Shown: positions 29,564 to 33,408 of the stretch, piece after piece
Layout of the letters: every line of letters begins with the position of its first letter
Numbering within the stretch: the first letter of the stretch is position 1
DNA from: Escherichia phage RCIP0319
Direction: 5' to 3' (one strand)
DNA: 64,000 nt
Sequence record: PV464738.1
Program-made: the position numbers and the translations under genes
Notes under the pieces: model-generated
What the model saw: only the letters and a program-made list of their open reading frames with translations
Database searches by the model: none
Told to the model about the DNA's origin: nothing

Positions 29564-29982
29564 GACAATTCCTCTAAATACTTGATGATGTGGTGAATAG
29601 TTCCCTTCACGATTATCTCACGTTGAACGTCTGCAATATTATAACGCTTTAATTCAATCGAAGGGTGGACTAAATAAAACATCTTCTCAGAATCGACTTT
29701 AAGCAAAACAAATGATGGGTATTTCCAATCATTCCACGAAGAAAGAAAGCTGCACTGACCTTTCTCAAATGCATTTCTGAAAGGTGCAGTGGTGGCCCTT
29801 GCAGGCCACGATTCAAAGAACTTCATTTCAAGCCAAAAGCCGCGACCTTTCCGGTTGGTGCCGATTACGTCCGGCACACCATCACCCGTCATGGATTCGA
29901 TTCTTTGAAGCTTCAATACTGATTCTGAATGCTTCTTCAGAGGCACAAAAATGTATTTTTGTTCACGGTTGTTTGTTGCCAT
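29560..29982 (-). CDS. VRR-NUC domain nuclease (PD-(D/E)xK)
   Basis: GVPDVIG...FWLEMK motif; classic pairing with SNF2 helicase; start taken at second Met (29982), the longest ORF reaches 30033. Confidence 0.55.
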   Translation of the reverse strand: MATNNREQKYIFVPLKKHSESVLKLQRIESMTGDGVPDVIGTNRKGRGFWLEMKFFESWPARATTAPFRNAFEKGQCSFLSSWNDWKYPSFVLLKVDSEKMFYLVHPSIELKRYNIADVQREIIVKGTIHHIIKYLEELS

Positions 29983-32866
29983 CTGGATACACCTGTTTGA
30001 TAACGTCGACGATGAACATATCAATTCCTTCAAGCTTGCGACCTTTCATCAGGAAGAATGCACCGTTCCCGACGTTCTCTGCGATGTACTTCCCGTATTT
30101 CTGGAACTTCTCTGGGCGAATCCTGAAGCGCATTGGCGAGTCGGTTGAGTCATCCTTGCACATAAGGTCGATGAACTGAGTCTCAAGCTTGTTTCCATAC
30201 TGGTCAAACTCTGCGTAGCGACCATCAGCTTGAAGACCCTTTTTAAGTTTGCCGTGCTTTGTGTAAATGCCGCGCTCAAGACGTTTACGGATGCGTGTTG
30301 CTTCGTTCTCGTCTGCCAGCACTTTCTTGGTCAGTTTGCCGATTACTATTGCACGCTCATCATCGCCTACTTCCTTCATCTGGCGTATTGAAGCGCCGGA
30401 AGTGACGCCAATAAGATATGGGTCATTATATGCCCAGCCGAACTTTGTGTGCATTTCGGTAAGGTCGCCGTATTTAACTTCAGCATTGGCCAATGCATCC
30501 TTCTGCTTTTGCGTTAAGGTTCCGGCTTCACGTGCTTCGATGTACTTCATAGCCTTCACCATGCCATATCCTTTTGCGTTCATGATGCCGCCGATTAGCT
30601 TTCCGTTAGCGATGGTCCAGTTCATCGAAGAGTGATCAGGGTCGATTGGCACATAATCCACGCCTTCCTTCGCAAGTTCACGTAATATCGCAATCGTCTG
30701 GTCTTCGTCCTTAGCAGCGCGTAAGCAAGCAGCGGCAAATTCCAACGGGTAGTGTCGTTTAAGCCACAAGGTCCAGTAGGTCACGACCGCGTATGATACG
30801 GAGTGTGACTTGTTAAAGCCCCATGACCCGAACGTCGCCATCGCCTGCCAAAGCTTTCTTGCATCCGCTTCCGGTACGCCGTTATTTATTGCGCCTGCAA
30901 CGAAGTCTTCTCCAAGCTTGTTAAAGTATTCCTCACCCTTACGGCCTGACATCGCCTTACGTACAGCGGATGTTTTCGCCCAGTCAAATGAACCAATCTC
31001 TTTAACCACGGCCATGATTTGCTCTTGGTAAAGAAACACGCCGTAAGTCTCTTTTAAGTACGGCTCAAGCTGCGGCACATCATACTCAATCGGTGCACGC
31101 CCTGCCGCGCGTTCAATGTATTTCTGGGCCATACCGGACGACAACGGGCCAGGTCGGCCAAGTGCTGTCAGGTTATCGATTTTGTTGAAGTTATCAACGT
31201 GCACAAAGTTGGTTACTGAGCGTACAGCGTCGCCTTCAAACTGGAAGATGCCTGACATCTTGTTTTCGTTAAGGATGTCAAGGACGCTTTGGTCATCAAG
31301 CTTGATTCCGTACAGCGTTTCAGCATCTATCACGCCAGTATCAGAAATGATGCCGAGGGTGCGAAGGCCCAGCGCATCAAGCTTCAAAAGGTTAAGGTAT
31401 TCGCTGTCAGGCTTATCAATTTGTGCAATCCCTTCCGCCGTTACCGTACAGTAATCAGAGATTGGGTCATTACACACAATGATTCCCGCTGCGTGAACAC
31501 CTGTGTGGGAAGGGTGAATCTCAAGGTCACCCATGCATCGCGCGGCATCGGGATATTTAGCCACAAACTCTTGGCCCGTGGTCGTTGTTGCAAAGGTATC
31601 CTCCAGGCCGTGACCATAACGGGCGTCACCAGATGAGTATTCAAGCAATGCGTTTTTAATGTTGGCCGTTTCGTGATATCCAATGTTGAACTTCTTACCA
31701 ACCTGAGCCATTACTGAGTTGGCCTTAAGCGTGTTGATGTTGCCAAGTTTTGCAACGTTCATTTCGCCATATTTTTCTTTAAGGTAATCAAACACCATAT
31801 AGCGTTTGGTGTCCTCAAAGTCAATATCAATATCAGGGAGGTCGGCGCGGCTTACGTCGATGAATCGGGCAAATAGCAGCTTATACGGGATTGGGTCAAC
31901 TTCCGTGATGCCGAGGCAATAACAAACCAGTGAACCAGCCGATGAGCCGCGAGCGGGTCCGACGAGCATTTTTGTTTTTGCAAATCGTACAAGGTCCGCT
32001 ACCACAAGAAAGTACGAGTCGAAATCTTTCAGCTGAATCTGGTGAATCTCTTCGTTGAATCGGTCCTCATATTCCTGAGTCCATTCTTTGATGTGACCTG
32101 CCTTAAGGCGGTACTCCATCCCCTCACGAGCAAGTTTTACCATGTCACCAGCAAGGTGGATAATCGGTGCCTTGCGCAGCTTCAGGTCAAGTCCCACGAT
32201 TCCGTTTGCAATGTCAACTGCATTGGCCGTTGCTTGATTCAACTCATCTTCGGTCAATATTCCTTTAAGCTGTTTGTGCAAGTCTTCCGCGTCAACGATG
32301 CAGTGCGGCTTGACCGTGTCGCGAACTTCCCAAGCATAAGCAAAGTCAACGTGCTCAGGTGAAGGCATGTGGTTGTATCCAGTTAAAACCAGCGGCCTTC
32401 CGTTGCTGCGGTGAGCCAATACCTGGCGCTTGGCCAAAAGGAACGATGATGGGTTGACGTCTATATAATCGTAGTCCTCTGGCCGCAGCAACTCCACGGC
32501 CCCGCCACAGAATTTAACGACGCCATCGAGCGCCCCGAACTCTGCACGGGTCAGTCCGCCGCGCTGTGTTGCAAGCGTGGTCGCGTTGTAAAAGGATTTC
32601 AGGTCAAGCGCCAATATCCAAGCCTTCGGTTTGAATCCCTTTTTCGGGTCCGCATCAGGGTCAATGATTGGAATCTCCATGCCAAACATAGGTTTGATAT
32701 CATTCTTCTGACATTCCTTTTCCCAGCGAACGTGACCCCATGTATTGTTATCAACTAATGCCGCGACTTCGCAGCCCAACTCTTTGAGCCGTGCTATAAT
32801 TTCAGGATGCCGTCCATATACTTCTTTGAACGTGTAACCGCTGCGAACTCTCAATTGTGGAAACAT
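29963..32866 (-). CDS. dnaE: DNA polymerase III alpha subunit (DnaE-type)
   Basis: 967 aa; GPARGSSAGSLVCYCLGITEVDP and FNKSHSVSYAVVTYWTLWLKRHYPLEF match Pol III alpha palm/fingers motifs; N-terminal PHP-like domain. Confidence 0.85.
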   Translation of the reverse strand: MFPQLRVRSGYTFKEVYGRHPEIIARLKELGCEVAALVDNNTWGHVRWEKECQKNDIKPMFGMEIPIIDPDADPKKGFKPKAWILALDLKSFYNATTLATQRGGLTRAEFGALDGVVKFCGGAVELLRPEDYDYIDVNPSSFLLAKRQVLAHRSNGRPLVLTGYNHMPSPEHVDFAYAWEVRDTVKPHCIVDAEDLHKQLKGILTEDELNQATANAVDIANGIVGLDLKLRKAPIIHLAGDMVKLAREGMEYRLKAGHIKEWTQEYEDRFNEEIHQIQLKDFDSYFLVVADLVRFAKTKMLVGPARGSSAGSLVCYCLGITEVDPIPYKLLFARFIDVSRADLPDIDIDFEDTKRYMVFDYLKEKYGEMNVAKLGNINTLKANSVMAQVGKKFNIGYHETANIKNALLEYSSGDARYGHGLEDTFATTTTGQEFVAKYPDAARCMGDLEIHPSHTGVHAAGIIVCNDPISDYCTVTAEGIAQIDKPDSEYLNLLKLDALGLRTLGIISDTGVIDAETLYGIKLDDQSVLDILNENKMSGIFQFEGDAVRSVTNFVHVDNFNKIDNLTALGRPGPLSSGMAQKYIERAAGRAPIEYDVPQLEPYLKETYGVFLYQEQIMAVVKEIGSFDWAKTSAVRKAMSGRKGEEYFNKLGEDFVAGAINNGVPEADARKLWQAMATFGSWGFNKSHSVSYAVVTYWTLWLKRHYPLEFAAACLRAAKDEDQTIAILRELAKEGVDYVPIDPDHSSMNWTIANGKLIGGIMNAKGYGMVKAMKYIEAREAGTLTQKQKDALANAEVKYGDLTEMHTKFGWAYNDPYLIGVTSGASIRQMKEVGDDERAIVIGKLTKKVLADENEATRIRKRLERGIYTKHGKLKKGLQADGRYAEFDQYGNKLETQFIDLMCKDDSTDSPMRFRIRPEKFQKYGKYIAENVGNGAFFLMKGRKLEGIDMFIVDVIKQVYPDGNKQP

Positions 32867-33408
32867 TATTTACTCCAGATGTCATATACGCCAATTTGTT
32901 GGCAGACTTTGTGCAGTAATATTACGTCGTCTAATGCACGGTGCTTCTGTTCATATTTTCCGAAATATAATTCATACAGCTCTTGAAGCTTAACTCTTCG
33001 GCCAAAAATAGGCAAGGTTTGCTCCACTGTACAGATGTTTATTTCTGGGAAATTAACATCATCAAGCGTAAGTCCTTCGCGCTGTAATGCATAGTCAAGA
33101 ATGTTTTTATCAAACGCATGGTTGTGCGCGATAGTGGCATCCGTCTTCTTGAATATGTCTTTTAGTTGCGGAACGAAATTAATGAAGGGTGGATTGCACT
33201 CAAGGTCTTCATTGGTTAATCCGGTAATCTTTGTGATGATTTCTTCAATCACAATTTCAGGATTAATTATGAACTCGAACGTTTCAAGAATCTCTTTGCC
33301 GTCCGTCAACAGGCCTGCAAATTCAATAGGGCGCGGCTGCATTCCAAGCGGCGCTTTCGGGTGCACGGTTAATCCGGTTGTTTCGAAGTCATAAGGGAGA
33401 AATAACAC
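32866..33408 (-). CDS. DnaQ-like 3'-5' exonuclease (DEDDh)
   Basis: 180 aa; Exo I YDFETTGL, Exo II HNHAFDKNIL, Exo III HRALDDV. Confidence 0.75.
   Translation of the reverse strand: MLFLPYDFETTGLTVHPKAPLGMQPRPIEFAGLLTDGKEILETFEFIINPEIVIEEIITKITGLTNEDLECNPPFINFVPQLKDIFKKTDATIAHNHAFDKNILDYALQREGLTLDDVNFPEINICTVEQTLPIFGRRVKLQELYELYFGKYEQKHRALDDVILLHKVCQQIGVYDIWSK

Follow-up and report, generated by a model that had tools for sequence, protein, structure and literature searches.

A phage DnaE-type polymerase with a degenerate PHP domain and an adjacent gene for a DnaQ-like exonuclease

Replicase errors are summarized as being edited either by DnaQ or by the PHP domain (PMC11348249), and in bacteria the loss of PHP metal ligands has co-evolved with a separate epsilon subunit (Barros 2013, PMC3666897). 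Here we describe a 64,000-nucleotide (nt) stretch of Escherichia phage RCIP0319 (record PV464738.1; the whole stretch is called the window), in which a gene for a DnaE-type, C-family polymerase with a degenerate PHP domain directly follows a gene for a DnaQ-like DEDDh 3'-5' exonuclease. We consider it probable that the two genes encode a two-protein replicase, in which a DnaE-type polymerase with a dead PHP domain is proofread in trans by the separate exonuclease. This would be a direct extension of the published bacterial rule, its distinctive aspect being the lack of a C-terminal tail on the exonuclease, which would imply a different association with the polymerase.

The window belongs to a Wifcevirus-type E. 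coli myophage: its region 29560-33408 shares 97% DNA identity with Escherichia phages FEC19, RCIP0363, ECML-117, WFH, Mansfield and others, at least 80% of the region is covered in 28 records, and the Mansfield record is classed in Caudoviricetes, genus Wifcevirus. Phages of the Wifcevirus group are myophages of E. coli and Shigella, 66-72 kb in size and distant kin of the Pseudomonas phages of Pbunavirus (BASEL preprint 10.1101/2024.09.12.612763). The same gene pair is found in Pbunavirus (PB1-like) and related myophages of ~65-73 kb, with ~56% identity in the exonuclease and an invariant PQLRVR motif in the polymerase. Isolate phage records with an exonuclease homologue number 362, most of them Pbunavirus and 294 from Pseudomonas, and label it "DNA polymerase III epsilon", "putative DEDDH exonuclease" or "putative DnaQ"; polymerase homologues with 56-86% identity are encoded by phages of Pantoea, Serratia, Luteibacter, Xanthomonas and Burkholderia. 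In GenBank, Wifcevirus records already carry the name "DNA polymerase III alpha" for the one gene and "DNA polymerase III epsilon" or "DNA polymerase exonuclease subunit" for the other. In the literature searched, we found no published analysis of PHP ligand loss in phage DnaEs, or of PHP versus DnaQ in phages.

A C-family polymerase gene overlapped by an exonuclease gene

The exonuclease stop codon TAA (32868-32866) and the polymerase start codon ATG (32866-32864) have one base in common. Neighbours that overlap in the phage, the two genes are unlinked in E. coli. A first-pass annotation, made from the sequence alone before this analysis, had reported a separate DEDDh exonuclease gene that runs into the start of the polymerase gene, intact Exo I-III motifs in its product and a polymerase that keeps the Pol III alpha core motifs, all of which agrees with what we find. 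The polymerase matches the Pfam models DNA_pol3_alpha (PF07733; 3e-63) and DNA_pol3_finger (PF17657; 1e-37 over residues 519-663) as well as phrog_405 (4.8e-271), and it passes the NCBIfam superfamily model TIGR00594 with 475.2 bits against a cut-off of 434.35. Orthology to bacterial DnaE1 found no support among the NCBIfam equivalogs, of which the best, PRK05673, gave 495.7 bits where its cut-off is 1002, and the others for DnaE likewise fell short of theirs. Sequence matches in the PDB to the Pol III alpha subunits of Taq, E. coli and M. tuberculosis reach ~1e-85 and start only at residue ~241-265. The catalytic Asp triad is intact: D345, D347 and D497 correspond in the alignment to D401, D403 and D555 of E. 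coli and, like R306 G307 S308, R334 and K495, do not vary among the 82 family members. With a palm bearing Pol-beta-like nucleotidyltransferase motifs, fingers and an N-terminal PHP fold, the polymerase fits the C family. Its AlphaFold2 (AF2) model has a mean predicted local distance difference test score (pLDDT) of 87.8 and a predicted template modelling score (pTM) of 0.80; the best Foldseek match is M. tuberculosis DnaE1 (7pu7, E 1.5e-48), and 2hnh is matched with a template modelling (TM) score of 0.73.

Beyond the fingers, the model shows a helical region and then a beta-rich domain at about residues 836-960 (strands 838-852, 897-904, 912-916, 937-944 and 950-959), which gives weak Foldseek matches to the OB folds of RPA, tRNA synthetase and Teb1 (E 0.06-0.2). 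In the alignment, the E. coli clamp motif 920-QADMF-924 has no counterpart in the phage polymerase, and no tau-binding domain follows the OB-like domain, the phage protein ending at residue 967 whereas E. coli alpha extends to 1160. Absence of the clamp motif and tau domain agrees with what Kazlauskas and Venclovas reported for viral C-family polymerases (Kazlauskas & Venclovas 2011, PMC3201878). The Wifcevirus polymerase carries an insertion of ~20 amino acids (aa) in its OB-like domain (aa ~868-894, nt ~30185-30265), parts of which are found in at most 12 of 81 relatives; this insertion and a substitution in the PHP domain described below are the only details, both at genus level, that set it apart from Pbunavirus-type replicases. 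Some homologues are 250-270 aa longer (P0115, P0096), one of them, P0115, with the Pfam intein-splicing domain PF14890, and locus L067 has a 3.7-kb open reading frame (ORF; 3883-7621). Judged from these sequences, inteins appear to have invaded the phage polymerase gene in some lineages.

The exonuclease belongs to Pfam RNase_T (PF00929; 1.8e-21, 77.8 bits against a cut-off of 24) and matches phrog_192, "DNA polymerase exonuclease subunit", at 1.4e-37. Its residues D7 and E9 (Exo I), D100 (Exo II) and H156 and D161 (Exo III) align to D12, E14, D103, H162 and D167 of E. coli epsilon. This DEDDh pentad is invariant in 64 of 65 aligned exonucleases (that of the window and those of the viral loci surveyed below), the lone exception having K at the last position, and also in a 70-sequence family alignment. 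The AF2 model (pLDDT 95.1) superposes on E. coli epsilon186 (2gui, 2ido, 1j53) with TM scores of 0.82-0.86 and a root-mean-square deviation of about 2.5 A, and also matches the exonuclease domains of DinG, PolC, TREX1/2, ExoX and 3'hExo. Like the E. coli Pol III core, the phage system thus has a C-family polymerase with a conserved catalytic triad and Pol-beta-like palm motifs, and a separate DEDDh exonuclease of the same fold. In sequence, however, the exonuclease resembles PolC- and DinG-type exonuclease domains more than it does proteobacterial dnaQ: it matches PDB 2p1j at 3.3e-06 and scores 1.3e-17 with NCBIfam polC_Gram_pos versus 1.3e-11 with dnaQ_proteo, and it misses the NCBIfam dnaQ cut-offs (TIGR01406 dnaQ_proteo, 44.5 versus 222.7; TIGR00573, 37.8 versus 71.5). 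PolC-type domains of the Gram-positive kind are the closest of all, although PolC carries its exonuclease as an insertion in the PHP domain of one polypeptide and the phage has it as a separate ORF in a different frame. We rejected a host origin of the exonuclease, its identity to E. coli epsilon being ~20% (19-21% in the Foldseek structural alignments) and PolC- and DinG-type models scoring better.

E. coli epsilon has 243 residues, and its C-terminal segment 181-243 comprises the clamp-binding motif and the alpha-binding region; isolated epsilon186 does not bind alpha (PMC3664792). The phage exonuclease ends at residue 180, ~19 residues past Exo III, and its homologues are 177-209 aa long (all 120 among the matches listed), so the phage protein consists of the globular domain only. 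It lacks the epsilon-type C-terminal tail with its clamp-binding motif, Q-linker and alpha-binding helix, and across the 64 loci that carry a homologue the tail beyond the exonuclease domain has a median length of ~11 aa.

The PHP metal site and the exonuclease gene in relatives

The polymerase begins with MFPQLRVRSGYTF, the N-terminus that the first-pass annotation had quoted as lacking the usual His residues of the PHP metal site. The Pfam PHP model barely recognizes it (26.7 bits against a cut-off of 26.4, residues 5-91), and the N-terminal 262 aa, searched alone against PDB sequences, gave only chance matches (E > 0.5) because the domain is too divergent for a single-sequence search; we therefore relied on profile and fold comparison. 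The nine PHP metal ligands follow the consensus H H D/H H E H C/H D/N H (Barros 2013 Table 1, PMC3666897) and are H11 H13 D20 H47 E72 H95 C145 D212 H214 in Taq; E. coli DnaE has R10 H12 D19 F44 D69 H83 G134 D201 R203 at these positions, R10 and R203 being listed in the places of two metal ions (PMC3666897). Using hhalign, we compared 146 N-terminal sequences of the degenerate family with those of phage DnaEs whose PHP is intact, and obtained a global, in-register alignment (probability 99.96%, E 7.8e-38) that puts R6 R8 E15 N40 E64 K81 G122 Y164 H166 of the window polymerase at the nine ligand positions. Aligned to E. coli DnaE with MAFFT, ligands 8 and 9 fall instead at H166 and P168. Under either mapping, at most three of the nine positions are compatible with metal, so that the phage PHP is more degenerate than that of E. 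coli, in which five of nine are replaced (Barros 2013, PMC3666897). The absence of the usual metal-site His residues is borne out, His standing at one ligand column only (H166), and intact ligands shifted in register, which the first-pass annotation had considered as the opposing outcome, are ruled out by the global profile-profile alignment, which restores no ligand.

The pocket does not, from its conservation, look simply decayed: R6 (82/82 family members), R8 (81/82), R19 (77/82), D39 (80/82), E64 (80/82) and P168 (81/82) are retained, and the motif PQLRVR is found throughout the polymerase family. R6 takes the place of the first His ligand, as R10 does in the folded PHP domain of E. coli; together with R8, it is reminiscent of the E. 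coli pair R10 and R203. H45 (77/82) is the sole well-conserved His in residues 1-255; it is conserved in the intact-PHP group too, at a non-ligand column. H166 is particular to the Wifcevirus polymerase, 75 of 82 relatives having Asp at this position. In the AF2 model, most of residues 1-255 have a pLDDT near 95, with a drop to ~70 around residues 181-190, and Foldseek matches the PHP part to the alpha-PHP/epsilon chimera chains 4gx8 and 4gx9. The PHP domain is well folded in the model, but its ligand residues leave it no trinuclear metal site. In overall fold the window polymerase resembles the DnaE of Thermus and DnaE1 of M. tuberculosis, in which PHP is an active proofreader, but it lacks their trinuclear metal site and is paired with a separate exonuclease gene.

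We sampled 120 polymerase homologues at 56-99% identity and 80 viral-contig loci at 66-29% identity, and searched for an exonuclease gene within 4 kb on either side of each polymerase. A homologue of the window exonuclease was found in 64 of the 80 viral loci, down to ~32% polymerase identity, and in all 64 it lies upstream of the polymerase and on the same strand. The two genes overlap or are at most 13 nt apart in 35 of these loci and are 100-1700 nt apart in the remainder. None of the 64 loci has a fused exonuclease-polymerase form, and we rejected a fusion of the window genes by programmed frameshifting, since the TAATG junction has no slippery heptamer and the genes are 100-1700 nt apart in 29 of the 64 relatives. 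Every exonuclease-linked polymerase with an alignable N-terminus has a degenerate PHP domain, in which R or K mostly occupies the first two ligand positions. The 13 loci L070 and L073-L084, by contrast, encode polymerases of about 1100 aa that are 29-34% identical and have no exonuclease gene within 4 kb, and all 13 show HHDHEHCDH at the nine ligand columns. Separation among phage DnaEs is therefore complete, a degenerate PHP going with an exonuclease gene and an intact PHP going without one.

Two of the 80 loci have a polymerase that is cut off at the contig end. At L043, a degenerate PHP (R and R at ligands 1 and 2) occurs with no exonuclease gene within the 2.8 kb of upstream sequence present there; it is the sole such locus. 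The 13 loci with an intact PHP, all on viral contigs, are candidates for phage replicases that proofread with their own PHP domain. Neighbour-joining analysis of the polymerase core groups all exonuclease-linked polymerases in a single clade and leaves those with an intact PHP at the base; the pattern is therefore probably a single switch that was later kept and not many independent events. A large protein database holds at least 45 polymerase and exonuclease clusters whose longest contigs are of identical length, and which are presumably co-located on one contig. The gene pair is also present in relatives that infect Pseudomonas, Burkholderia, Xanthomonas, Serratia and Vibrio.

Proposed proofreading in trans and its alternatives

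In the replicase that we propose, the first protein would be the DnaE-type polymerase, with the domain order PHP, palm/thumb/fingers and OB. Having no trinuclear metal site, its PHP domain would be without the ancestral built-in 3'-5' exonuclease action and would be retained as a folded scaffold, with the conserved R6 and R8 where the first two His ligands would sit. The 180-aa DEDDh exonuclease, encoded directly upstream and translationally coupled through TAATG, would then edit in trans. From the sequence comparisons we infer that the exonuclease edits the errors of the window polymerase, that both proteins associate in a complex, and that PHP now serves as a structural element or as a docking site. 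As the exonuclease lacks the C-terminal tether of epsilon, any such binding must use the globular exonuclease domain directly, unlike in E. coli. The suggestion in the first-pass annotation that the polymerase may depend on a DnaQ partner for its proofreading gains support from the conserved gene order and nearly invariant DEDDh residues, the two-state split among phage DnaEs and the bacterial precedent.

Several points weigh against proofreading in trans. The correlation between PHP state and exonuclease gene may rest on one event, in which case its instances are not statistically independent, and with a search confined to 4 kb on either side, genomes scored as exonuclease-less could carry the gene elsewhere. 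The mapping of ligands 8 and 9 differs between the MAFFT and hhalign alignments. By analogy with E. coli, where the epsilon186 domain that the phage exonuclease resembles does not bind alpha, a stable complex would not be guaranteed, and DEDDh nucleases of this fold also act elsewhere, as in DinG, TREX and ExoX.

In one alternative, the exonuclease is a free-standing DEDDh nuclease, serving end processing in recombination or repair, or the turnover of host DNA or RNA, and is merely an operon-mate of the polymerase. Such a role would suit a protein that has neither the alpha-binding segment nor the clamp-binding motif of epsilon, that counts DinG, TREX1/2, ExoX and 3'hExo besides epsilon among its structural neighbours, and that scores below every NCBIfam dnaQ equivalog cut-off. 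However, the upstream position is kept in 64 of 64 loci across deep divergence, often with translational coupling; among the viral loci examined, the gene where present stands beside a polymerase with a degenerate PHP and is absent at all 13 intact-PHP loci; and with both PHP and DnaQ editing missing, the replicase would be left without a proofreader. We regard a free-standing nuclease as quite unlikely.

We also consider it very improbable that the PHP domain has kept nuclease or phosphoesterase activity by way of a non-canonical site, formed by E15, D39, E64 and H166 or H45, or by an Arg-lined phosphate-binding pocket, so that the polymerase would not depend fully on its partner. The strong conservation of R6, R8, R19, D39, H45 and E64 shows selection on the pocket, and the domain is confidently folded in the AF2 model. 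Yet at most three of the nine canonical ligands are left, with a single His at a ligand column; H166 is genus-specific and replaced by D in 75 of 82 relatives; and H45 is likewise conserved, outside the ligand columns, among the polymerases with an intact PHP. Moreover, the E. coli PHP domain keeps more ligands and is nevertheless inactive, metal-free and structural (PMC3666897).

That the phage polymerase borrows the epsilon, beta clamp and tau of its host, with the phage exonuclease as an accessory, is scarcely credible: the host is E. coli, R6 is the E. coli-type Arg at ligand 1 (R10) and the annotations of related genomes list neither a phage clamp nor a clamp loader, but the polymerase has neither a QADMF counterpart nor a tau-binding C-terminal domain, and the occurrence of the gene pair in relatives that infect five other bacterial genera argues for a self-contained unit. 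The absence of a clamp or clamp loader was noted in the annotations of the Mansfield record and of a 44-kb stretch of Bas98; theta, the clamp and the clamp loader, all part of the E. coli system, are likewise not annotated for the phage.

If the exonuclease does proofread the polymerase in trans, as we favour, one way of doing so would be for the tail-less protein to dock on the polymerase with its globular domain, perhaps where an invariant Arg-lined pocket remains of the PHP site, giving a minimal two-subunit replicase that needs neither clamp nor tether. We consider this docking doubtful. Were it to hold, the dead editing pocket would have been reused as a socket for its own replacement, in a mode of assembly unlike that of E. 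coli alpha and epsilon, and so compact a replicase might contribute to the short latent period of Wifcevirus; a very short latent period has been reported for Wifcevirus phages (BASEL preprint 10.1101/2024.09.12.612763).

The comparison carries the bacterial rule to viruses, proofreading being assigned either to PHP or to a separate DnaQ-type protein with the PHP metal site lost in the latter case, and phage DnaEs show both states. A large clade of ~65-73 kb myophages, including Wifcevirus and Pbunavirus, is uniformly of the type with a dead PHP and a separate exonuclease. Pbunavirus phages are widely used in Pseudomonas phage therapy. The findings support annotating the small gene as the exonuclease subunit of the polymerase. 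Lacking a tether, a clamp motif and a tau domain, so compact a replicase of two proteins could serve as a simple model for the handover of a mismatch to a proofreader acting in trans. The findings overturn nothing and open no long-standing question.

Expression signals and neighbouring genes

The positions of the gene pair, its domains and signals, and the neighbouring genes are collected in Table 1. The hairpin upstream of the exonuclease gene has 8 pairs, 7 of them GC, and the tail TTTTTG in a pattern scan, and the Mansfield record has a terminator annotated at the matching place. A second hairpin, GGCCTTTTTGTAGGAGGCC (33412-33430, minus strand), has its 5' arm in common with the first and encloses the AGGAGG of the exonuclease gene. 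Judging from the sequence, the two hairpins would be mutually exclusive, and translation of the exonuclease could in this way be coupled to termination or read-through. In a scan for a sigma-70 promoter of the exonuclease-polymerase pair, matches were no more frequent than in shuffled sequence.

Table 1. Positions of the polymerase-exonuclease gene pair, its parts and signals, and neighbouring genes in the window
Feature	Position	Strand	Remarks
DnaE-type (C-family) polymerase gene	29963..32866	-	967 aa
Degenerate PHP domain	32102..32866	-	aa 1-255
Palm-thumb-fingers core	30662..32101	-	aa 256-735; catalytic D345, D347, D497
C-terminal OB-fold-like domain	29987..30361	-	aa about 836-960
DnaQ-like DEDDh 3'-5' exonuclease gene	32866..33408	-	180 aa, GTG start
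TAATG stop/start overlap, exonuclease to polymerase	32864..32868	-	read from sequence
Strong Shine-Dalgarno AGGAGG	33414..33419	-	5 nt before exonuclease GTG; read from sequence
Terminator-like GC-rich hairpin and T-run	33427..33446	-	between upstream gene and exonuclease-polymerase pair
ATP-dependent ligase	24088-25065		phrog_114
MazG-like protein	25062-25655		phrog_1992
SNF2 helicase	28040-29563		profile match, confirmed
Glyoxalase-like gene	33463-34014	-	
FabG-like short-chain dehydrogenase	34209-34892	-	
PNKP-type phosphatase	34958-35830	-	
ThyX	35827-36657	-	
Conserved protein, no assigned function	37184-38179	-	phrog_4828; UDP-galactopyranose mutase-like in Mansfield record
Dda-like helicase	39311-40495		phrog_325, 2.8e-100

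Among the neighbours named in the first-pass annotation, the SNF2 helicase, the Dda-like helicase, the ligase and MazG were all recovered by profile matches. Its VRR-NUC label for the ORF at 29560-30033 (minus strand) fared less well: the label is plausible in view of a PD...ExK-like motif (GVPD...WLEMK), but Pfam and NCBIfam searches returned no match that would confirm it, and the ORF matches phrog_2165, which is labelled "DNA helicase". From the PD-(D/E)xK-like motif, the product is probably a small nuclease. On one side the ORF abuts the SNF2 helicase gene, and on the other it shares up to 71 nt with the 3' end of the polymerase gene. No tRNA or tmRNA gene was found in the window (1-64000). 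Upstream of the gene pair, the stretch 33463-38179 (minus strand) brings unusual metabolic genes into the replication module, running from the glyoxalase-like gene to the phrog_4828 protein, and these genes might jointly point to nucleotide or DNA modification chemistry.

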